Shown piece by piece: positions 1 to 10,325 of a DNA stretch of 40,270 nt. The position numbers and the translations under genes are program-made. This stretch comes from a virus (Duplodnaviria; Heunggongvirae; Uroviricota; Caudoviricetes), in IMG/VR virus record IMGVR_UViG_2740892440_000005, positions 1 through 40,270 of that record, one strand, 5' to 3'. The notes under the pieces were generated by a model. That model was not told the origin of the DNA. It saw only the letters and a list, made by a program, of their open reading frames with translations, and did not search any database. The first letter of the stretch is position 1. Each line of letters opens with the position of its first letter.

Positions 1-192
1 TCAGGAGCATTTCTGATTAACGCCACCGTTAAGAATCCACCCTTCAACAGCTTCACGAAGGTATGATTTTGGGTGGGTTCTGACTGGCTTCGGAAATCCG
101 TGCCGTTTGGTATAGTTCCAGATTGTCTGACGTGATGAAACACCGAGCTTGTTCATCACTTCTTTCTCAGGAATCAGGCTGGTATCGGTCAT
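1..192 (-). CDS. xis: Excisionase / AlpA-family small DNA-binding protein (63 aa)
   Basis: ORF translation MTDTSLIPEKEV...TIWNYTKRHGFPKP resembles AlpA/Xis HTH proteins. Stop codon sits at 1-3, ATG at 190-192 with GGAGA RBS just upstream. Confidence 0.7.
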   Translation of the reverse strand: MTDTSLIPEKEVMNKLGVSSRQTIWNYTKRHGFPKPVRTHPKSYLREAVEGWILNGGVNQKCS

Positions 193-213
193 CTTAATTC
201 TCCAGGCAAAAAG

Positions 214-233
214 AAACCGCCATCAGGCGGTTT
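214..233. terminator. Hairpin AAACCGCC-ATCA-GGCGGTTT flanked by A/T runs (possible bidirectional terminator)
   Basis: Perfect 8-bp inverted repeat read directly; T-run follows on the minus strand. Confidence 0.45.
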
Positions 234-390
234 GGTGTTCTTTCAGTTCTTCAATTTGAATATTGGTTACTTCTGCATGTGCTATCTGCGCCCATATCAT
301 CCAGTGGTTATAGCAGTCATTGATGTCCTCTGCTTCGATAACTCTGTTGAATGGTTCTCCATTCCATTCACCTGTGACTCGGAAGTGCAT
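223..390 (-). CDS. Small hypothetical protein (55 aa)
   Basis: Hand-translated ORF not in the supplied track (MHFRVTGEWNGEPF...); GGAGA RBS 6 nt upstream of ATG; stop lies inside the hairpin. Confidence 0.3.
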   Translation of the reverse strand: MHFRVTGEWNGEPFNRVIEAEDINDCYNHWMIWAQIAHAEVTNIQIEELKEHQTA

Positions 391-577
391 TTATCATCTC
401 CATAAAACAAAACTCGCCGTAGCGAGTTCAGATAAAAGAAATCCCCGTCAGTGCGAGGATTGTTAGTTGCGCTCTGCTGCTGCCTTGGTCATTACCATAT
501 CCACCCAATTTCACCAGACATGATTCTCGCAATCACTATCATCACCAAAGTGATAATCACAACTTTAACTGGCGGCA

Positions 578-1144
578 TCATTCACCATCATGCTGCGGCG
601 GTTCTGGTAGCGGCATCCAGTGAGTTACGTCATCCAAGATATTTCCTGATAAATACGTGAAAGCTCTATATTTTTTGTAATCAATTGGATTTACAACCCA
701 GTTCCAATATGCGGCCACGATTTCACCTTGACTAAATGCCAGTAACATTTTGGTGTCTTCCGGCATTCGATCACTACAGCTTATCCAACTATCCGGAGTT
801 CCCGGAGTTGGTCCATCGAATTCGGGCATGTCAGGACCTTTTCTGATAGCTTTAGCCAGCTCCAGCGGGTCATCGTAAAGCCAGTCGCCAGTTTGTGGGT
901 GATTTGCTTCTGCAAGCTGCGCAGCCCATTCAAGACCATCTTTTTGACCTTGGAGATAATCAAGCGGCAACTCTTCATGATTACTTGCAGGTTCTGCACT
1001 ATCAGCTTCGCGCCGCTTCTGTAGCTCTGCTGCCATCGCTCTCACGACTTCAACTGGTGCCCTTGCAGCAAACTCTATGTTGGTGATTAGCTCATTAAGA
1101 TATTGCTCGCCTGGATACTGTTTCTTATCGGTTATAGTGGTCAT
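578..1144 (-). CDS. DUF551-type phage protein (189 aa)
   Basis: C-terminal ...VTHWMPLPEPP is the DUF551 hallmark as I recall it. Start taken at the internal MTTITDKK Met; its ATG is separated by 1 nt from the stop of the upstream gene. Confidence 0.65.
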   Translation of the reverse strand: MTTITDKKQYPGEQYLNELITNIEFAARAPVEVVRAMAAELQKRREADSAEPASNHEELPLDYLQGQKDGLEWAAQLAEANHPQTGDWLYDDPLELAKAIRKGPDMPEFDGPTPGTPDSWISCSDRMPEDTKMLLAFSQGEIVAAYWNWVVNPIDYKKYRAFTYLSGNILDDVTHWMPLPEPPQHDGE

Positions 1145-1145
1145 A

Positions 1146-1532
1146 TCACTCTCCTTTTTCCTGAAGCATAGCGGCACGGCAGGCGTTCCAGCCTCTCACC
1201 TCTGCAATAGCGGCAACAGCATCAACCGCGTACATGCTAAGAGGATTAGGCATTGGTTTTTCTTCCGGTACTACTGGAACGGGGGGGGCGGCGTAGACCT
1301 CAATAATTCCATTATCAATAGGCCATTCTCCATCCTTGATGTAGTCACTTGTGCCATCGACCTGCTGTTCTGCAATGTGGAAAGCACCTATTGGTTTTGC
1401 TTCCAGCGATGCCAGAGCAATTCGTGCCAGTTCTTCCGCTTCTTCTGCTGGCAGTACAACGTTGCTACCAGGTCCGTATGTTTCGCGCCACTGCTTGATT
1501 GTCAGTAGTCGCTCTTTGGTTATAGTGGTCAT
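1146..1532 (-). CDS. Hypothetical phage early protein (128 aa)
   Basis: Track ORF; ATGA start/stop overlap with the next gene upstream suggests translational coupling. Confidence 0.55.
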   Translation of the reverse strand: MTTITKERLLTIKQWRETYGPGSNVVLPAEEAEELARIALASLEAKPIGAFHIAEQQVDGTSDYIKDGEWPIDNGIIEVYAAPPVPVVPEEKPMPNPLSMYAVDAVAAIAEVRGWNACRAAMLQEKGE

Positions 1533-1738
1533 TTGTTAATCCTCAAAACTTTATGCCCAGGCGCAAAAGCACGTGTTTTGTCTTTGCTTATTCGCCAGCC
1601 ATCCTTACGCGCCTCTTTTGCACAACCAGCCCATGACGTACCGATATACTCTCCGAAGTCTGGCACTGGATATACACCTTCCGTACACTGGCGGCAGTCA
1701 CAATAGAGATGTATGGTGTAACTTGCGGCAATAGCCAT
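1529..1738 (-). CDS. Small Cys-rich hypothetical protein (69 aa)
   Basis: Start at internal Met MAIAASYT... with GGAGAG RBS; contains CDCRQC motif. Confidence 0.45.
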   Translation of the reverse strand: MAIAASYTIHLYCDCRQCTEGVYPVPDFGEYIGTSWAGCAKEARKDGWRISKDKTRAFAPGHKVLRINK

Positions 1739-1739
1739 A

Positions 1740-1928
1740 TCACTCTCCTTTAGTGCGCAAGTTGTTTTTCCAGCGGTTTTGCGCCGCGCTGGGCTTTTTG
1801 CAAAAACCACAATCCATCATCCCGTAATGTTTCATTAACCCCACCCGTCGGTTGCTGAGTCTCACCCACTGCCAGACGCCAGGAGCGTTTCTACGAACTA
1901 ACAGAATCTTTGCTTTACGGTTTTTCAT
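1740..1928 (-). CDS. Small basic hypothetical protein (62 aa)
   Basis: Track ORF; AGGAGAG RBS 8 nt upstream of ATG. Confidence 0.45.
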   Translation of the reverse strand: MKNRKAKILLVRRNAPGVWQWVRLSNRRVGLMKHYGMMDCGFCKKPSAAQNRWKNNLRTKGE

Positions 1929-2101
1929 CGTTTTGCTCTCCTGCGTTTCTTTGCTGCTCGTCGTGCCGATGCAATACCGGTATGGCGGCGCTTTGGTGCC
2001 GGGATGATGTTGTCAGCCATCAGGACATGCGGCTTTGCAATTAGCGCAGAAGCCCAAAAACGAGTCGGGTACGGTAACAAGCCGATACATGCCACACGCA
2101 T
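1925..2101 (-). CDS. Small basic hypothetical protein (58 aa)
   Basis: Hand-translated (MRVACIGLLPYPTRFW...KKRRRAKR); AAGGAGG RBS 6 nt upstream; stop overlaps next start (ATGA). Confidence 0.4.
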   Translation of the reverse strand: MRVACIGLLPYPTRFWASALIAKPHVLMADNIIPAPKRRHTGIASARRAAKKRRRAKR

Positions 2102-2364
2102 TACTCACCTCCTTTGATGCGAATGCCTGCGGCGCGGATTGCAGCGATGACTTCAGAAACTTTGTATGCCATTACCGTTTGGTAATCATCGTGAAAATCT
2201 GTTCGATGAAGCATGCTGCTACGTTCCGGGAGCGATATTTCCCGAGCATCCAGTTCCTTAACGCGTTCCTCCAGTTCGTAGACCCTGCATTGTTCTCTAT
2301 CATCAATCAGATATAACCCAAGACATTCGCTTTCTACCCAACCGCCAAAATCATGATCGTAACG

Positions 2365-2850
2365 CTAACATGAAAACTCACCGTCACCGTCCTTTGTTGG
2401 AATGGTGTAACTATCTAATGGGCCACCATATGTCGGCACATTTCCCAATGTTGGATGCTCAATCCACATGAAAAATGCACGTCCGGTTATTGGGCAAATA
2501 TCTGGCCGCCATTGGTTACGAACAGCCTTGGTTTCGGATAATTCTTCAGCGTGTTGTTTTACTTCCTCAAGCTCAACACGCAGCTTCCCTACCGTTAGCG
2601 CAATATCCTCGTTCTCCTGGTCGCGGCGTTTGATGTATTGCTGGTTTCTTTCCCGTTCATCCAGAAGCGCCAGCACGGTTTCTGGTCCGGCCAGAAATTT
2701 GAAGGCGTTGAGCGCATCAATATCCACACCGTAATCTTTAAGTTCCTGTTCACTTAACAAATCATCATCAGCTGGCAACATTAACAGGCGTTCCATTGCC
2801 GGGATTGCACGTTCTGCCGCCTCACGCAGTGCCTGATAGTCAATTGTCAT
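2365..2850 (-). CDS. Ead/Ea22-like phage protein (161 aa)
   Basis: N-terminus MTIDYQALREAAERA... matches my recollection of the Ea22-like family; AAGGA RBS 9 nt upstream of chosen ATG. Confidence 0.55.
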   Translation of the reverse strand: MTIDYQALREAAERAIPAMERLLMLPADDDLLSEQELKDYGVDIDALNAFKFLAGPETVLALLDERERNQQYIKRRDQENEDIALTVGKLRVELEEVKQHAEELSETKAVRNQWRPDICPITGRAFFMWIEHPTLGNVPTYGGPLDSYTIPTKDGDGEFSC

Positions 2851-3490
2851 TCTCGCCATCCTTCACAGTTGTAATCACTACAGCCTTCAAAATCATATGG
2901 CTGTACTGCCAGGTGATTTTTCCGCAATGCGGACAATTCCAACGCACCTTCCCGCTTCGCGACTTCTTTCTTCTGTTCTGATCTTTCAACCAGTCAGGCA
3001 TGACCAAACCTGCGCCCTGAACCATTGTTCTGCGGTTAAAGTTATTGATATTGAACGTCCGGCGCTTTGCTGCATCAGCAATGGGAAATGGCAACCAAAC
3101 TATTCCTGGTTCGTTTTTGTTGGCGACGCTAAAGATGGTCGCTTTACTGAAGTCATCTGTTGGCAATCCACCGTGTTGAAGCCAGTAAACATCGTTGCCG
3201 TTCCAGCTACCTTTTTTGTAGGCCACATACGCAGTGCAATCTGACTCAATCAGGCTTTCTGTAGGGATGTACTGGCAATCAACGTGCCACACTGCCATTG
3301 CATCCACGCTATCAGCGCAAACAGGCTGATCGATATCTCGACCACAATTCCAGGCTTTTTGGGCTTCTTCCAGCGTGTAAACATGGGCGCGATCGATATC
3401 AGAACTGTAACCATTGCCATTATGGCAATGGAATGAAGCGTTATTGCCCACAGTTTCACGCGAGCACATCATGTAAAAACGGTTAGTCAC
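2840..3490 (-). CDS. Hypothetical protein, Cys/His-rich (216 aa), GTG start
   Basis: GTG start preceded by AAGGAGG; GTGA overlap with upstream gene; CPHCG motif near C-terminus. Confidence 0.55.
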   Translation of the reverse strand: MTNRFYMMCSRETVGNNASFHCHNGNGYSSDIDRAHVYTLEEAQKAWNCGRDIDQPVCADSVDAMAVWHVDCQYIPTESLIESDCTAYVAYKKGSWNGNDVYWLQHGGLPTDDFSKATIFSVANKNEPGIVWLPFPIADAAKRRTFNINNFNRRTMVQGAGLVMPDWLKDQNRRKKSRSGKVRWNCPHCGKITWQYSHMILKAVVITTVKDGENDN

Positions 3491-3999
3491 TGGTTGCCTC
3501 CTTTGCGAAGCTCTGCGGCGAACTCGTTAAGTGATATGTAGCAATCTCCAAATGTTAACGAACCGCTCGACCGCATATGCTCCATAGCCATCTCAACGCC
3601 CTGCGCACGCACTTCAGCCAGGAAAGCGTCGGTGGCTGGGGTGTCTGATTGCAGAGACTTTGCGCGATAGTCATTCCACCCTCTTGCATACATGGGATTA
3701 ACTTGCACGCCATCTTTTACACAATATGCCTGCCCTCCACGGTTGATAACCTTGATTTCGTCCATAGCGCCAGACTTCATCCCCGCACTCTCCGATGCCA
3801 GCGCCGCGCACTTGGCCTCAAGGTTATCAATCGTGATTCCAGCAGAACGACACTCCCGCAACGCCGTTTCCAGTTTTGATTCAAGCTCACCGAACTTACG
3901 CACCAGATATTCAGCGTTTGTTTCGTTAACCTTTAAATCTCGTGGGATGCATTTACCTTTCAGAAAACCATCCATCTCAATTAGTGACATTTGTTTCAT
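3487..3999 (-). CDS. Hypothetical protein (170 aa)
   Basis: Track ORF with ATG and GGAGTGGG-like RBS; coupled to downstream gene. Confidence 0.55.
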
Positions 4000-4160
4000 T
4001 TCTTCCCACTCCGCAACATCGCATTCAGATATTTGTTTTGATTCACTGATGGAAAAGAATTTCTCTTAAGCAATTCCTCTCTCGATGGCATTGGCTTTAC
4101 TCGTTGGCGAATAATCATTTCTGCCGGAAGAATGCCGGGATTGTATGCAAGTCCTCTCAT
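3996..4160 (-). CDS. Small hypothetical protein (54 aa from internal Met)
   Basis: GAGGA RBS 7 nt upstream of internal Met MRGLAYNPG...; the longer track ORF start has no RBS. Confidence 0.3.
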
Positions 4161-4170
4161 GGTAAATTCC

Positions 4171-4464
4171 TCAGTCATTACTGATAGCGCCATAGCGTGA
4201 GCGGTAATTACGCAGGCGCGGGTCAATTTCAGGGAAGTGGGTATATGTGGCTTTGCGGAATGGTCGGATTGATGTCTGGTAAATTCGCTCGCGTTCTTCT
4301 TTCTCTGCAAGCCATATACAATGGCGAAATTCCTTTTCCTCTTTCGTTTCCTGCGGTAGCGACATTATCCGGTCGTAGTTTTTTCTGAATTTATCCAGCA
4401 CCTCCGATACGGAATTGCCGGAACAGCGGCGCGCGTCATCCGCACCATACAGAGGCGCTGGCAT
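4171..4464 (-). CDS. Hypothetical protein (97 aa)
   Basis: Track ORF; AGGAG RBS 6 nt upstream of ATG. Confidence 0.5.
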
Positions 4465-4480
4465 GGTTTTCTCCTGTTGA

Positions 4481-5029
4481 TTATTTAGCTAACTTTTTCC
4501 AGATCGCTGAAACGTATTTGGCTTGGTGAATGGCATCATCAAGCGCGTTGTGGCGAGTTCCTTTGAATGGCATATCTCGCTTAGGGTCGAATCCTATTAC
4601 CTTCCCAAGTTCGACGATTGTTCTTACGTCGCGGTCATTCCACCACTGCCACGGAACTGGCTGCCCTGTCAGCGAATAACTGTTTCGGAGAATAACGCAG
4701 TCAAATGATGCTCCATTCCCCCAAACCTGAACGAATTTGTGGTTAGCGTTCTTTATGATGAATTCAGATAACCATGAAAGAGCCGTTGAAAGCTCCTGAG
4801 TGTTGCTGGTTAGCGATTTTCTGGCTTCTTCACTCTGTTCCAGCCACCATAAAATCGTTGAAGCGTCAGGACGCGCCCGATATCGCATTGATGACTCAAG
4901 CGAGATATTTACCGAGAACTCTTCTCCTGTTTCTCCGGTATTCGGGTCAAAGAATACCGCCCCAATAGAAATAACTGGCGCGTATGGCCCGTTGCCCATT
5001 GTTTCAAGGTCAACCATCAAGTGATTCAT
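4481..5029 (-). CDS. DnaQ-like (DEDDh) 3'-5' exonuclease (182 aa)
   Basis: Motifs MVDLETMG (Exo I) and HNALDDA (Exo III) read in the translation; AAGGA RBS overlaps the ssb stop. Confidence 0.75.
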   Translation of the reverse strand: MNHLMVDLETMGNGPYAPVISIGAVFFDPNTGETGEEFSVNISLESSMRYRARPDASTILWWLEQSEEARKSLTSNTQELSTALSWLSEFIIKNANHKFVQVWGNGASFDCVILRNSYSLTGQPVPWQWWNDRDVRTIVELGKVIGFDPKRDMPFKGTRHNALDDAIHQAKYVSAIWKKLAK

Positions 5030-5037
5030 GTAAGTCC

Positions 5038-5553
5038 TTAAATTGCGTGAATAGCGTGACGAGGGAAGGGGAGAGTTACTGGTGCAAAGGGGGTATCGTC
5101 GTCAAAATCCATAGGTGGTTCGCTGTGATTTCCCTGCTGCTGAGGTTGCTGTCTTTGTTGCTGACCATTATTTCGCTGAGATGAAGACTGTTCATTGCCT
5201 CCTTGCTTGCCACCAAGCATTTGCATGGTTCCACCAACGCCCACGATGACTTCGGTAGTGAACCGATCCTGTCCGCTTTGATCCTGCCATTTTCTTGTCC
5301 GCAATTTGCCTTCAAGATAAACCTCAGAGCCTTTTCGCAGATATTCGCTGGCAATTTCTGCCAGTTTCCCGCTCATTACCACGCGGTGCCACTCCGTCTG
5401 CTCCTTTTGCTCTCCAGTTTTCTTATCACGCCATTGTTCTGACGTAGCAACGGTAAGGTTTGCAAATGCCGTTCCTGATGGTGAATATCTGATTTCTGGA
5501 TCATGCCCAAGGCGACCAATAATGATCACCTTATTTACGCCTCTGCTTGCCAT
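5038..5553 (-). CDS. ssb: Single-stranded DNA-binding protein with C-terminal extension (171 aa)
   Basis: N-terminus [16 protein letters not shown]...EQTEWHRVV and Gly/Gln-rich linker are classic SSB; the acidic tip MDFDDDTPF is followed by 15 more residues before TAA. Confidence 0.9.
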
Positions 5554-6261
5554 TTATGCCGCCTGTTTTAGTTCGTTAACTCTGATGTTCATTACCTGAA
5601 CGCATTTAGCCTGCGCCTCCTCGTTGCCAGCCATTAATTGCCAGTCACGCTGATAACGCTCGATGAGTTTTTTCTTGTCAGTTTCTGTCGCTGCATAATC
5701 GCTGAAGTCTTTCAGGATTTGTTCGCAGTCAACCGATGGAGATTTCTGGTTGGTATTTTCTGGTGATGGTTTGTTATCTGATGCCGGGATTGCCCATCCC
5801 GGCAGCGATGGAGGGAGCCAGTAGAATCCTGTTCCATCCTTGAGTTTTGCCCTGTGCCATCCCTGCTTTTTATCGAGAGATGTTTGTGCGAAACCTTCCT
5901 CAAGGTTATACAGATACCGACCGATTCCCCACTGAACGGCAGCACGCTTCATTGCACCGGAACGACCACCTTTGACGGCTTCTACCTGCGTGTTTTCAGC
6001 AGCATCCCATTTGGTTACCCATTCGGAATCAATCTTTATTGATATGCCGCATTCAACGCCGCCGTTGTTGGGAATATCGCGGTATTCATTGCGCCATCCT
6101 GCTTTGCCGCAAACATCGTCCAGGCGTTTCATGATTGCCCTGTTCGTGACATAAGCCAGCACCATAGCCCACACCTTTCCATCGCGTGTTTTACCGCTTT
6201 GCTGTATTCGCCATTCGATATCTTCAGGGCTGAATGGCTCATCGAATTTGTTCAAATCCAT
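5554..6261 (-). CDS. Rad52/Sak-type single-strand annealing protein (235 aa)
   Basis: Contains GIGRYLY-type core motif typical of Rad52-family phage annealing proteins; sits next to ssb and exonuclease. Confidence 0.7.
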   Translation of the reverse strand: MDLNKFDEPFSPEDIEWRIQQSGKTRDGKVWAMVLAYVTNRAIMKRLDDVCGKAGWRNEYRDIPNNGGVECGISIKIDSEWVTKWDAAENTQVEAVKGGRSGAMKRAAVQWGIGRYLYNLEEGFAQTSLDKKQGWHRAKLKDGTGFYWLPPSLPGWAIPASDNKPSPENTNQKSPSVDCEQILKDFSDYAATETDKKKLIERYQRDWQLMAGNEEAQAKCVQVMNIRVNELKQAA

Positions 6262-6269
6262 AATTCACC

Positions 6270-6458
6270 TCAGAATGGTAATTCGGATGGAGCGGAAAGA
6301 AATTCGCGCTCATTCATGCGCTCTCTTTGTGCCTGCCATAAACAAAGTTGTTTCTTTGATTTATCTCCCGCCTTACGCCAGTAACGAGCCTCAGCAATGT
6401 GATATTCTCTTTTTAATCGACTTAACTCTGGAGTTTTCGCCAGCTCTACCGGAATCAT
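6270..6458 (-). CDS. Small hypothetical protein (62 aa)
   Basis: Start at MIPVELAK with GGAGG RBS 5 nt upstream; ATGA overlap with upstream ORF. Confidence 0.45.
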   Translation of the reverse strand: MIPVELAKTPELSRLKREYHIAEARYWRKAGDKSKKQLCLWQAQRERMNEREFLSAPSELPF

Positions 6459-6658
6459 TTTGACCTCCATTTTCTGTAGGCTTCGACGGCCTCACGAAAC
6501 ATCTTTTCATCGCCAATAAAAGTGGCGATAGTGAATTTAGTCTGAATAGCCATAAGTGTTTTATCCATTTTTTGGAACTCCTGGCTGATTAAGTACGTCG
6601 ATGAGTCGTTTCCATCCGTCACGTAATTTACGGGTGATTCGTTCAAGTAAAGATTCAT
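6455..6658 (-). CDS. Small hypothetical protein (67 aa, or 37 aa from internal Met)
   Basis: Track ORF; only the internal Met (start 6568) has an AGGAG RBS, so the start is uncertain. Confidence 0.3.
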   Translation of the reverse strand: MNLYLNESPVNYVTDGNDSSTYLISQEFQKMDKTLMAIQTKFTIATFIGDEKMFREAVEAYRKWRSK

Positions 6659-6730
6659 TTAGTTGGAAGGCACCCATGCGAGCGCCTCCCGCGATTGCGT
6701 AAATCATGGGTGGTTCCTTATGTTGGTTTA

Positions 6731-7699
6731 TTAGTAGGTTATTTTTGTTGCGAATACTTCGCCTTTTACGATGGCTGTTATGATATTTTTAGCAACATCT
6801 TCTGATGCGCCAACCTTGATAAGGTCAGCAAGTATTTTGTTATTTACTTCTTTCCGGTGAGCTTTATCCTTTGCTCTGCGCTCTTCTTCGTCCTTGATTC
6901 TTTTTTCTTCTGCTATTCTGGCTTGCTCTTTTGCTTCAGCCTCGCGACGGATTCGTTCAGCATCCTCCTGTGCTTTTCGGCGTTCTGCTTCAATTGCCGC
7001 CTGCTTTTCTCTTTCAGCTCGTTCTGCTGCCTCTTTTGCTTCGCGCTGTGCTCGTTGCTCGGCTTCAATGCGTTCACGCTCTGCACGTTCCGCTGCGGCC
7101 TTAGCTTCTGCTTCTCGCCTTGCTGCTGCTTCAATTTCGGCTTTTGCCTTTGCTTCGGCTTCAGCTCTGGCTTTCTCTTCAGCTTCTTTTTTTAAGCGTT
7201 CTTCATGCTCTCGCTTTTCCTGCTCCGCTTTGAGTCTTGCCTCTTCTCTTTGGCGGTCAAATTCGCGATCCATCAAAATCGCTATTTCATGGTCAGACTC
7301 AATTTGCTTTGCGAGAGCTTCAGCTGCTGCCTTAGCTTCTTCTTCGGCTTTAATCCGCGCCTGTTCTTCCTCATAATCAGTAAGAGGCTGGCGTGCCTTG
7401 GCTTTCAGCTCATCAAGGCGATCACGCACTGTCTTGCGGTTGGCATCAATTAGCTTTGGAATTTCCTTCAGTTCAGCAACAAGGTCTTTTCCAAGACCAT
7501 CGAGATATGTTTTCGTCTGCGCAACTTTATACGCCAGAGAAGCGATCTCCTTTCTGCCCTTTGCCGTTGTGATATCAGGCACAAAGGACATAACTTCACG
7601 TTCAACCTTTTGAAGGATTTCTTCAATCTGGTCGGCAGACTGAAATACAGTCATTGCATTTGCTTTTTCAATAACAACTAAATCTGTTACTTCACTCAT
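6731..7699 (-). CDS. DUF1351-like phage protein with long charged helical segment (322 aa)
   Basis: N-terminal domain resembles DUF1351 as I recall it; GGAGG RBS 4 nt upstream of ATG. Confidence 0.6.
   Translation of the reverse strand: MSEVTDLVVIEKANAMTVFQSADQIEEILQKVEREVMSFVPDITTAKGRKEIASLAYKVAQTKTYLDGLGKDLVAELKEIPKLIDANRKTVRDRLDELKAKARQPLTDYEEEQARIKAEEEAKAAAEALAKQIESDHEIAILMDREFDRQREEARLKAEQEKREHEERLKKEAEEKARAEAEAKAKAEIEAAARREAEAKAAAERAERERIEAEQRAQREAKEAAERAEREKQAAIEAERRKAQEDAERIRREAEAKEQARIAEEKRIKDEEERRAKDKAHRKEVNNKILADLIKVGASEDVAKNIITAIVKGEVFATKITY
6877..7282 (-). repeat. Low-complexity E/A/R/K-rich coding segment (about 135 aa)
   Basis: Translation is almost entirely E, A, R, K (AEAEAKAKAEIEAAARREAEAK...), typical of a single alpha-helix or coiled coil; also generates spurious antisense ORFs. 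Confidence 0.6.
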
Positions 7700-7915: not shown

Positions 7916-8542
7916 CTACCCGTAAAGCAGGAAGTGCTGCACTTGCTTTATCTGCTTCTTTTTGTAGTAACTCTTTGCTTTCAGGCCAAAATTCAATAAG
8001 TCGCTTATTGGTAGTAACTCTTTGCTTTCAGGCCAAACTTCAATAAGTCGCTTAACTGTTGTGACTGAGTTCAAAGCAGCCCATACATTTGATTCGATAT
8101 CCTTTTTCAAGGCATCAAGGTTTTGTTGCAATGCGCAGATTTCATCAAACCTTTTTGTTATTTCGTGTTCTGCGTCAAACATGCATTTATCTTTGGTTGG
8201 AGTAGGGAGCAATATATCTTCGCCGTTGCCGTCTTTCCCATATGAATGCCATCCAACCCTTCTGCCAGATACAGTCAGATAAATTGAAGTAGAACGAACA
8301 TCGTATGAGTAAAATGAACATCCCATCTTTCCAAGTTCTTCACTTATAGCTACCAACTTGGATGATAACTGATCCACTTCCTCAGTTTTCTTTTTACCGC
8401 CAAACGCAATAACTCTGGCGTCAAGTGCAAGCTGGTTCTTTAACTTTGTTACTTCTTCAAGTTCAGTGAAAACCCCAGACTTAATTAAAGCGTTACGAGC
8501 GATTTCCTCTTTCATTCTCGTAGTTAAGCGGATTGATGACAT
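7916..8542 (-). CDS. Hypothetical early-left protein (208 aa), 3' end altered by tandem duplication
   Basis: Start at MSSIRLTT with GAGG RBS; a 47-bp direct duplication lies inside the last about 30 codons. Confidence 0.5.
   Translation of the reverse strand: MSSIRLTTRMKEEIARNALIKSGVFTELEEVTKLKNQLALDARVIAFGGKKKTEEVDQLSSKLVAISEELGKMGCSFYSYDVRSTSIYLTVSGRRVGWHSYGKDGNGEDILLPTPTKDKCMFDAEHEITKRFDEICALQQNLDALKKDIESNVWAALNSVTTVKRLIEVWPESKELLPISDLLNFGLKAKSYYKKKQIKQVQHFLLYG
7961..8054. repeat. 47-bp tandem direct duplication (2 copies, 45/47 identical)
   Basis: Copies at 7961-8007 and 8008-8054 (core GTAGTAACTCTTTGCTTTCAGGCCAAA[A/C]TTCAATAAGTCGCTTA) read directly; 47 is not a multiple of 3. Confidence 0.85.
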
Positions 8543-8553
8543 ATTAATTCCTC

Positions 8554-8853
8554 TCAAATAAGTGGTTTGCTGCCTAATTTCATTTTCTGGCGACCAACAC
8601 AAGTCACACCCATTTCACTGCGTGGCTTGCGGTAGTAAATACGGTTCTGTTTACGCTCGACTTCTTCTGCCTTCTTGCAGCGAAGGCTTCCGAGTGATGC
8701 TGCTTTATCTGCTCTGACGCAACCAGAGAGCTTTAGCGCAATCTTTCGCGCCAGTCGCTGTTCTTGCATTGCCTGTTCACGTTGAGCCTGTCTGCGTGCT
8801 CTGCGGCGATTTCTGGCGTTATCGTCAGCCAGATATGTAATGACTACTGTCAT
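8554..8853 (-). CDS. N: N-type transcription antiterminator (99 aa)
   Basis: N-terminal arginine-rich motif NARNRRRARRQAQREQA; first gene downstream of pL/nutL; GGAGG RBS. Confidence 0.7.
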   Translation of the reverse strand: MTVVITYLADDNARNRRRARRQAQREQAMQEQRLARKIALKLSGCVRADKAASLGSLRCKKAEEVERKQNRIYYRKPRSEMGVTCVGRQKMKLGSKPLI

Positions 8854-9608: not shown

Positions 9609-10325
9609 TCAAACCAGTCTGAGTTTTGTCTCAATTGCAACGCCTATAATCTTGCAGTTTCCATTGATTGGCACGAGAGGCCATGCAGGATTAAGTCCCT
9701 TGAGGTATTTATTTCCGCCGTCGATTATCAGCTTCTTGAATGTTGCTTCGTTAGAGTCAGAAAGTTTTGCTATGACCAAGCTGCCGTTGATCGCCTCCCT
9801 TCCGGTATCGAAAAGAACGAATGTTCCCTCTGGAATGCTTAACCCAACCGGTGCCGTCATTGAATCACCTTCCACTTTAAGCCAAAACGCATTACCTTGA
9901 ATATGCGCGTCAGACTCAAGCCAAACATCTATGTCTTTAATGGTGTATGGTTCGCATGCTTCACACCACGAGCCAGCCTGGATACTGCTTAACACCGGAT
10001 ACCTCTTTCCTGCTCTGTATTCCCCTGCATACCTTACGTTGGCATCGCTCTTAAGGCTTTCTGCCTGTTCTGCAACCTTGGCAGCAATTGACTGGCTAAA
10101 ATCAGCAATTGAGACTTGCAACAATCGTGCAAAACCAGATGCAACCTCAACGTTTAGCGCGTTTCTGCCATTAAGATAATGCCCTACCGCTCCTTGGGTG
10201 ATACCCAGTTCATCAGCGATTGAGTATTGGGTTATTCCCAATTCTTTCTTTTTTGACTCATACAAAGCCTTAAGCCGCTTAGCGTCTTCGAGCTGTTCTG
10301 TCGTCAGTGATTTTTTATTTTCCAT
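9609..10325 (-). CDS. cI: CI-type prophage repressor (238 aa), HTH plus S24 autopeptidase domain
   Basis: N-terminus LTTEQLEDAKRLKALYESKKKELGITQ and C-terminal EGDSMTAP...TFKKLI are closely lambda-cI-like. Confidence 0.9.
   Translation of the reverse strand: MENKKSLTTEQLEDAKRLKALYESKKKELGITQYSIADELGITQGAVGHYLNGRNALNVEVASGFARLLQVSIADFSQSIAAKVAEQAESLKSDANVRYAGEYRAGKRYPVLSSIQAGSWCEACEPYTIKDIDVWLESDAHIQGNAFWLKVEGDSMTAPVGLSIPEGTFVLFDTGREAINGSLVIAKLSDSNEATFKKLIIDGGNKYLKGLNPAWPLVPINGNCKIIGVAIETKLRLV

Follow-up and report, generated by a model that had tools for sequence, protein, structure and literature searches.

The window analysed here is the whole 40,270-nucleotide stretch of IMG/VR virus record IMGVR_UViG_2740892440_000005, a P22-like prophage of E. 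coli whose positions 5200–30000 match P22-like podophages (HZ41 and IME10, for example) and, at a greater distance, the P22-like phages of Salmonella. The subject of the analysis is a train of minus-strand genes at 1146–4464, together with the DUF551 gene directly behind it, that lies downstream of genes for Erf, SSB and a 3′–5′ exonuclease and upstream of xis. A CI-type repressor is encoded at 9609–10325 and a weak N-like open reading frame (ORF) lies at 8554–8853. Gene calls for Lambda_CIII and Lambda_Kil in a second assembly of this prophage place both between the repressor, N-like and Nmad5 genes on the one side and erf on the other. The P22-like character of the phage and the placement of its repressor, N-like, CIII and Kil genes thus make the region the far end of an early-left (PL) operon. 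A sequence-only reading made earlier had located it in the early-left region of a lambdoid phage, and with recombination genes upstream and xis downstream in a P22-like prophage this location is borne out. The gene map, its homologies, its mosaicism and two lesions are described below; most likely, positions 578–4464 represent the distal, non-essential accessory part of a P22-like PL operon, the counterpart of the ea region of P22 and the exo-xis region of lambda, built of independent modules.

The minus strand of positions 1–6261 is a single unbroken gene series from erf to xis, and nine of its genes fall in 1146–4464. The first is abc2 (4171–4464), coding for the 97-amino-acid (aa) anti-RecBCD protein Abc2, and it is followed by orf54 (3996–4160), a DUF2737 protein of 54 aa with an isoelectric point (pI) of 11.0, and by orf170 (3487–3999), a 170-aa protein of the EaE/Oad2 family with homology to HK446 gp27. 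Next come orf216 (2840–3490), which starts with GTG and encodes the 'CPHCG' protein of the P7 Upf87.6 or phrog_2457 family, and an Ead/Ea22-like gene of 249 codons (2101–2850) interrupted by an amber codon. The series continues with orf58 (1925–2101), a very basic protein of 58 aa (pI 12.0), orf62 (1740–1928), a basic protein of 62 aa (pI 11.6), orf69 (1529–1738), the 'CDCRQC' protein of 69 aa (pI 9.0; phrog_926), and orf128 (1146–1532), an acidic protein of 128 aa. The DUF551 gene (578–1144), whose 188-aa product also bears the name 'Eaa protein', is the last of the coupled train. The unbroken run of genes between the recombination functions and xis, and the small basic proteins encoded in it (orf58, orf62, orf54 and orf69), are as the sequence-only reading described them.

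From abc2 to the DUF551 gene, successive genes are separated by +10, −4, −4, −11, −1, −4, +1, −4 and +1 nucleotides (nt). All three of the stop/start overlaps named earlier were found again (ATGA at 1529–1532 and 1925–1928, GTGA at 3487–3490, which read tcat, tcat and tcac on the plus strand), and to these are added an ATGA at 3996–3999, formed by the stop of orf54 and the start of orf170, and a one-base TAATG overlap at 2101. The ribosome-binding sites (RBSs) are as strong as had been claimed, an AGGAG-like site lying 5–10 nt 5′ of every one of the nine start codons in 1146–4464 (for example AAAGGAGG preceding 3490 and 2101, and AAAGGAGAG preceding 1738), and the start of the DUF551 gene at 1144, just beyond this interval, likewise has one. 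The RBS usually falls within the last codons of the preceding gene, so that several products end in ...KGE or ...GGE. The description of the cluster as tightly coupled can be kept for translation, as predicted from the overlaps and RBSs, but not for function, for the genes come and go independently in 80 viral contigs (see below).

One functional assignment in the train is that of Abc2, which matches PF11043 over positions 1–97 of 97 (5.6e-63; 209.6 bits against a cut-off of 25) as well as phrog_656, and is 93% identical to its P22 namesake. The gene lies within the coordinates covered by the sequence-only reading, yet it went unrecognised there. P22 Abc2 binds RecC and alters RecBCD activity, according to Murphy 2000 as cited in PMC12373910, and the 93% identity suggests that Abc2 of the window would do the same. 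The neighbouring orf54 product is a DUF2737 protein (PF10930, 3.4e-32), 77% identical to P22 orf56 and 94% identical to HK446 gp28.

A Pfam scan gave no hit for orf170. Its sequence nonetheless places it in the Oad2/EaE family: it is 55% identical to HK446 gp27, the protein named Oad2 (E 9e-58), with approximately 95% identity in the first 75 residues, it has a 14-residue motif and a C-terminal LRKGGNQ motif in common with Oad2, and it is 37% identical to P22 EaE (9e-8). It also occupies the same place as HK446 gp27, directly after the DUF2737 gene and downstream of abc2. A preprint of July 2026 describes P2 OLD as an abortive tRNase that is activated on RecBCD inhibition and Oad2 as a protein that binds OLD and thereby prevents this activation; P22 EaE is named there as a relative of Oad2, which is at times fused to HNH or EaD/Ea22 modules, and a homologue from HK75, 54% identical to Oad2, gave no protection against P2 OLD (bioRxiv 10.64898/2026.07.10.737580). 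The GenBank numbering of HK446 (gp33, Erf gp32, gp31, Abc2 gp30, gp27) agrees with that of the preprint. These relationships make orf170 a candidate inhibitor of an OLD-type defence. The identity of orf170 over aligned columns is 64% with Oad2 and 74% with the HK75 homologue, and because orf170 is nearer to this inactive protein, activity against P2 OLD cannot be assumed; orf170 may be an Oad2-family variant tuned to another OLD-family or related ABC-ATPase/TOPRIM defence.

Two further P22 relationships are found towards the xis end. The orf128 product matches phrog_5117 over its full length (1.8e-22) and is 39% identical to residues 1–78 of P22 EaA, and the DUF551 protein (PF04448, 3.7e-21) is, at its C-terminus, 37% identical to the C-terminus of EaA. 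The earlier statement that no function could be assigned to any gene except the Ea22-like and DUF551 genes was thus an overstatement, since Abc2, orf170 as an Oad2-family member, the DUF2737 protein as P22 orf56 and orf128 as a relative of the EaA N-terminus can be added.

Ea22/EaD-type coiled-coil proteins are of a kind reported to favour lysogeny. The Ea22-like gene of the window (PF13935, 2.4e-29; 103 bits against a cut-off of 27) retains the conserved N-terminal segment and the coiled coil, with 54% identity to residues 4–84 of lambda Ea22 and, for the coil, 71% identity to P22 EaD. At 2365–2367 (minus strand) an in-frame amber TAG leaves a 161-aa product and an open remainder of 87 codons, so the gene does not encode an intact, full-length Ea22-like protein with its C-terminal domain. 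The ORFs as first called include 2365–2850/2859 and 2101–2214, both of which are pieces of this gene; the latter, a 37-aa 'ORF', falls inside the 87-codon remainder. As a correction to the sequence-only reading, these ORFs are two parts of one 249-codon gene split by the amber, and the train accordingly has nine genes and not ten. The affected codon is GAG in P7 upf88.3, in plasmid pMB3176_1 and in Stx2c phage EH1904, where the surrounding DNA is almost identical. The amber is present in both assemblies of the prophage, with the 161-aa product called in the second assembly too, and the exact truncated product is found on one contig only; the mutation is therefore real and private to this strain. 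Programmed readthrough is rejected because of this private occurrence. In Ea22 the N-terminus and the coiled coil are conserved and the C-terminal domain varies (PMC10834534).

The second lesion lies in orf216, which matches phrog_2457 over its full length (1e-109). Its family, represented by Upf87.6 of phage P7, has 144 homologues of approximately 214 aa with 47–99% identity and no Pfam domain, and in 52 genome loci it ranges over Enterobacterales, Acinetobacter, Shewanella, Aeromonas, Alteromonas, Pseudomonas and a few Betaproteobacteria. The family has a C-terminal ribbon, CxxC...Cx4C, in which C186, C189 and C204 are invariant and C209 is conserved in at least 90%. The window carries a one-base deletion in this part of the gene (plus strand: GG at 2899–2900, against GGG in relatives) that shifts the last approximately 20 codons, swaps the C-terminus ...WQYSPYDFEGCSDYNCEGWRE for ...WQYSHMILKAVVITTVKDGENDN, and costs the protein C204 and C209, half of the conserved four-cysteine zinc ribbon. 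The CPHCG protein noted earlier is present as an ORF but, as assembled, is frameshifted close to its 3′ end. The intact form of 214 aa would reach its stop at 2847 and share an ATGA with the start of the Ea22-like gene (2850), in place of the present overlap of 11 nt. In the family at large, the representatives P0009, P0006 and P0026 are also frameshifted in the zinc-ribbon region, and they enter the same alternative frame to ...KDGENDN.

Comparison of the two assemblies bears directly on the origin of the deletion. The second one, the Logan assembly of SRR1599278, encodes an intact 214-aa orf216. Its contig SRR1599278_110 aligns with the window over 8480 bp with no mismatches and three one-base indels (at 2899–2900, 4584 and 7880), and the indel at 4584 disrupts in the Logan contig an exonuclease gene that is intact in the window. 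Three indels and zero substitutions suggest homopolymer errors in both assemblies, and the orf216 frameshift is probably such an error or else a very recent change. Programmed frameshifting is rejected, given that two assemblies of the same prophage differ at the site. By exact protein matches, the window belongs to an E. coli contig whose locus tags run from AAW07_10895 to AAW07_10920, with two tags of that series lacking a matching protein. A label carried by the P7 protein, 'putative tyrosine phosphatase', finds no profile or fold support. The structure model of the Upf87.6 family is confident and has no neighbour in the PDB or BFVD fold libraries, and its basic C-terminal ribbon shows a weak resemblance to eL43, a ribosomal protein (E 0.03–0.5).

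An amber in one gene, a frameshift in the next and further frameshifted variants in the Upf87.6 family could together be taken to mean that the region is decaying prophage DNA in which the genes are drifting pseudogenes. Such decay is very unlikely. Purifying selection on orf128 and orf69 is strong, the seven genes without a lesion are full length when compared with their families, and the remainder of the window matches complete P22-like phages. The frameshift, moreover, is missing from the second assembly, which is otherwise free of mismatches over 8.5 kb, and the amber is recent and private, its exact 161-aa product being confined to a single contig.

The small proteins of the train differ in how well their families are defined. 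For orf69, 433 cluster representatives were recovered at E ≤ 1e-3, and among the best 150 of these almost all are 38–157 aa long; a 697-aa match among the same 150 aligned via short repeated stretches only. C13 and G47 are invariant in the broad family, and the close subfamily shows the pattern YCDCxxC ... GWRI ... APGH. The protein is a member of a large family of phage proteins of approximately 60–90 aa that are probably zinc-binding; its structure model is moderate (predicted local distance difference test score, pLDDT, 73.8) and gave no fold match. The orf62 product belongs to phrog_1380 (1.2e-38), and its homologues, at 49–90% identity, keep a length of approximately 62 aa with conserved termini, a variable middle and non-conserved cysteines. 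The orf58 product belongs to phrog_13831 (1e-41); its homologues are 81–100% identical and restricted to E. coli phages, and match lengths imply that a variant in Shiga toxin (Stx) phages has an in-frame deletion of 21 nt.

The ratio of nonsynonymous to synonymous polymorphism (pN/pS) clearly supports coding for orf128 (0.06) and orf69 (0.10). Support is weaker for orf58 and orf62, at 0.42 each with few variable sites, and one control frame of orf62 scored lower (0.20) than the orf62 frame itself. The question thus arises of whether orf58, and possibly orf62, is a non-coding, chance-open spacer that harbours RBSs and recombination boundaries. Besides the polymorphism values, such a reading would account for the absence of any orf58 homologue under 81% identity, for the fact that the orf58 position is left unannotated by the Prokaryotic Genome Annotation Pipeline (PGAP) in plasmid pMB3176_1, and for the conservation of orf62 at its ends only, with the middle read in another frame in some variants. 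Against it stand the complete absence of internal stops from full-length ungapped copies (0 of 81 for orf62 and 0 of 55 for orf58), the in-frame nature of the implied 21-nt deletion in orf58, the retention of length by orf62 homologues at 49–76% identity, the strong Shine-Dalgarno sites and ATGA or TAATG coupling of both genes, and their membership in PHROG families, both of which are annotated on more than 1000 contigs. On balance, a non-coding nature of these stretches is rather unlikely. A toxin–antitoxin pairing of orf58 and orf62 is also unlikely, both products being strongly basic and neither having a Pfam hit.

That the train is a mosaic is evident from its matches. No phage or E. coli record covers at least 80% of window positions 1–5200, while 1392–3501 is 97.7% identical to phage P7 and 1161–3501 is 97.1% identical to plasmid pMB3176_1. 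In 80 IMG/VR contigs that carry orf62, the order of the genes is always collinear and their combinations vary, orf58 being present in 69, orf69 in 54, orf128 in 47 and orf216 in 19. The gene boundaries themselves are repeated. An exact 16-nt junction, CATATCACTCTCCTTT, stands at 1142–1157 and again at 1736–1751 (repeat family D3), and its minus-strand reading, AAAGGAGAGTGATATG, comprises an RBS, the upstream stop and a start codon; by arithmetic, approximately 0.003 exact 16-mer pairs would be expected by chance in 5.2 kb. Identical or near-identical copies of ATGACCACTATAACC mark the gene starts at 1129–1145 and 1517–1533, and orf128 and the DUF551 gene have the first codons MTTIT in common. 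The junction repeat is likely a module-boundary microhomology, a predicted recombination boundary for module exchange.

The stop/start overlaps, the presence of orf58 alongside orf62 in 69 of the 80 contigs and the finding that orf58-orf62-orf69-orf128 is the commonest block might instead point to a single coherent system of several genes, such as a machine for anti-defence or host shutoff whose parts work together. All other combinations occur too, and orf69, orf128, orf216, the Ea22-like gene and orf170 are each often absent. No conserved neighbour of the Upf87.6 family was found in 52 genomes across Gammaproteobacteria, nearly all of the best 150 of the 433 orf69-family representatives are too short (38–157 aa) for a second domain, and PADLOC returned no hits. 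The overlaps contain the RBS of the gene that follows, and identical copies of these junctions recur, which is expected under modular exchange. A single coherent system is therefore very unlikely, and the lack of conserved gene neighbours identifies the genes as independent modules.

For the reading of the region as a set of accessory modules at the end of the PL operon, transcription, translational coupling and all biochemical roles in this phage are drawn from sequence, and the following course of events would fit. After infection or induction, one antiterminated message would run from the recombination module to two terminator-like hairpins on the minus strand 3′ of the DUF551 gene (410–461). 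Consensus scans, which report pattern matches only, gave no minus-strand promoter-like site in 578–5166 and no minus-strand terminator-like site in 462–7482. Strong Shine-Dalgarno sites inside the 3′ ends of upstream genes, along with the stop/start overlaps, would allow the message to be translated as a coupled train. The accessory modules in it were gathered through recombination at short boundaries between genes that are conserved. Abc2 would act as in P22, binding RecC and redirecting RecBCD, and the EaE/Oad2-family orf170 protein would probably bind and inhibit an abortive-infection nuclease of the OLD type, one that senses when RecBCD is interfered with. The further modules are, by homology, the DUF2737 protein, a Upf87.6 protein with a basic C-terminal four-cysteine zinc ribbon, a truncated Ea22/EaD coiled-coil protein, three small basic proteins and an EaA-like protein. 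Antisense transcription is rejected: the only plus-strand promoter-like match in 1146–4464 (1499–1526) is no better than chance. An Rfam scan of the whole window found no family.

Several observations weigh against this reading. Two of the nine genes are damaged as assembled, and the coding support for orf58 and orf62 is moderate. The middle and C-terminal segments of orf170 diverge from Oad2, which leaves the protein nearer to the inactive HK75 homologue, and the window, including the part upstream of erf, holds no homologue of Gp33, the OLD trigger of HK446. Finally, six products (orf216, orf69, orf62, orf58, orf128 and the DUF2737 protein) are without known function and without a fold neighbour in PDB or BFVD. 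The sequence-only reading had named a match of all ORFs to well-characterised housekeeping families of phages as an outcome that would refute it; with these six products, that outcome did not arise.

The same reading had assigned the cluster to the region that commonly holds host-takeover and anti-defence genes. This holds for Abc2 and plausibly for orf170, neither of which it recognised, and for the remaining genes it is a reasonable guess. Each ORF falls in a catalogued PHROG, those of orf216, orf69, orf62 and orf58 being of unknown function. PADLOC found no defence system among the ten proteins, its only output being a weak PglZ match (E 0.0015, 15 bits), and an NCBIfam scan gave sub-threshold hits only. 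Sequence searches of PDB with orf69, orf62, intact orf216, orf170 and orf128, and with profiles of the orf69 and Upf87.6 families, yielded nothing significant beyond the weak eL43 trace, and Pfam scans of 74 orf69-family and 66 Upf87.6-family members produced scattered sub-threshold zinc-ribbon hits only. Whether one or more of the unassigned modules is a new anti-defence or host-takeover effector can be put forward as a tentative and somewhat doubtful proposal, for which the Upf87.6 protein (orf216) and orf170 are the best candidates.

The flanks of the train contribute several observations of their own. Upstream, erf (5554–6261), coding for a Rad52/22-family protein, ssb (5038–5553) and the exonuclease gene (4481–5029) are all on the minus strand, and the exonuclease of the recombination module (4481–5553) has an Rv2179c-like 3′–5′ exoribonuclease fold (PF16473, 2.9e-73). 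The minus strand also encodes an Nmad5 protein at 7916–8542 (PF18757, nucleotide modification associated domain 5; 5.8e-59), in the early part of the PL operon and immediately after the N-like ORF. Between its gene and the CIII and Kil genes of the second assembly lies the minus-strand gene for a 322-aa protein (6731–7699) in which Glu, Ala, Lys and Arg are extremely abundant; its sequence is coiled-coil-like, and it has no Pfam hit. Downstream, a 55-aa ORF on the minus strand (223–390) adjoins xis (1–192, minus strand) and shares 91% identity with p35, a hypothetical protein of lambda (NP_597778); it is a lambda-type module within a P22-like phage.

Taken as a whole, the region is ordinary, a new mosaic example of a known accessory block that will not surprise phage specialists. 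It provides a further example of how, in lambdoid and P22-like phages, the early-left operon gathers at its end small, freely exchangeable counter-defence and lysis-lysogeny modules, and the same modules also reach P1-like plasmid prophages. In place of 'hypothetical proteins', the map now shows an anti-RecBCD gene beside one of the Oad2 family; it also merges two ORFs into one mutated gene and points out a probable error of assembly. As widespread and conserved families without a fold match, Upf87.6 and orf69 are reasonable targets for anti-defence screens, while orf170 offers a testable Oad2 variant.

One close parallel is with P22, in which the PL operon carries the order abc2-orf56-eaE-orf45-eaF-eaD-eaI-eaA-eaG-eaC-xis. 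Position and strand are the same in the window, and EaE-, EaD- and EaA-related proteins follow one another in the same order. The two regions differ, however, in content: orf216, orf58, orf62 and orf69 are without P22 counterparts, eaF, eaI, eaG, eaC and orf45 have no BLASTP match (E ≤ 0.1) to any ORF of the window, and the EaA-like sequence is split between orf128, which has the N-terminal part, and the DUF551 protein, which has the C-terminal part. The place of abc1 in P22 is taken in the window by SSB and an Rv2179c-like exonuclease.

A second parallel is the exo-xis ('bin') region of lambda and Stx phages, with orf60a, orf63, orf61, orf73, ea22 and ea8.5, which is transcribed from PL and dispensable (PMC10789677) and can modulate the choice between lysis and lysogeny (PMC10789677, PMC7093339, PMC10834534). 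As in lambda, the region of the window is an early one between recombination genes and xis, and its Ea22-type protein shares the N-terminus and the coiled coil, while its C-terminal domain has been exchanged in the way described for Stx variants (PMC10834534). In contrast to lambda, the window has no homologue of orf60a, orf61, orf63 or Ea8.5 (BLASTP, nothing below E 0.01 except p35), and it carries Abc2 and Oad2-family genes that are without a lambda counterpart; orf216, orf69, orf62 and orf58 likewise have none by BLASTP.

More local likenesses are found with HK446 and with P7/P1. In the recombination-locus hotspot of HK446 the order is abc2-gp29-DUF2737-gp27, and the gp27 homologue overlaps the DUF2737 gene by 4 nt. 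The hea operon of P7/P1 (upf87.6, upf88.3) stands on a different host replicon among different flanking genes, and its copies in P7 and pMB3176_1 are intact where the window has an amber and a frameshift. In P7 this operon is annotated with a predicted C1 operator in front, so that the P7 copy would likewise be repressed in the prophage. The hea operon presents, in a plasmid prophage, the same orf216–Ea22-like gene pair that the P22-like phage of the window carries at the end of its early-left operon.

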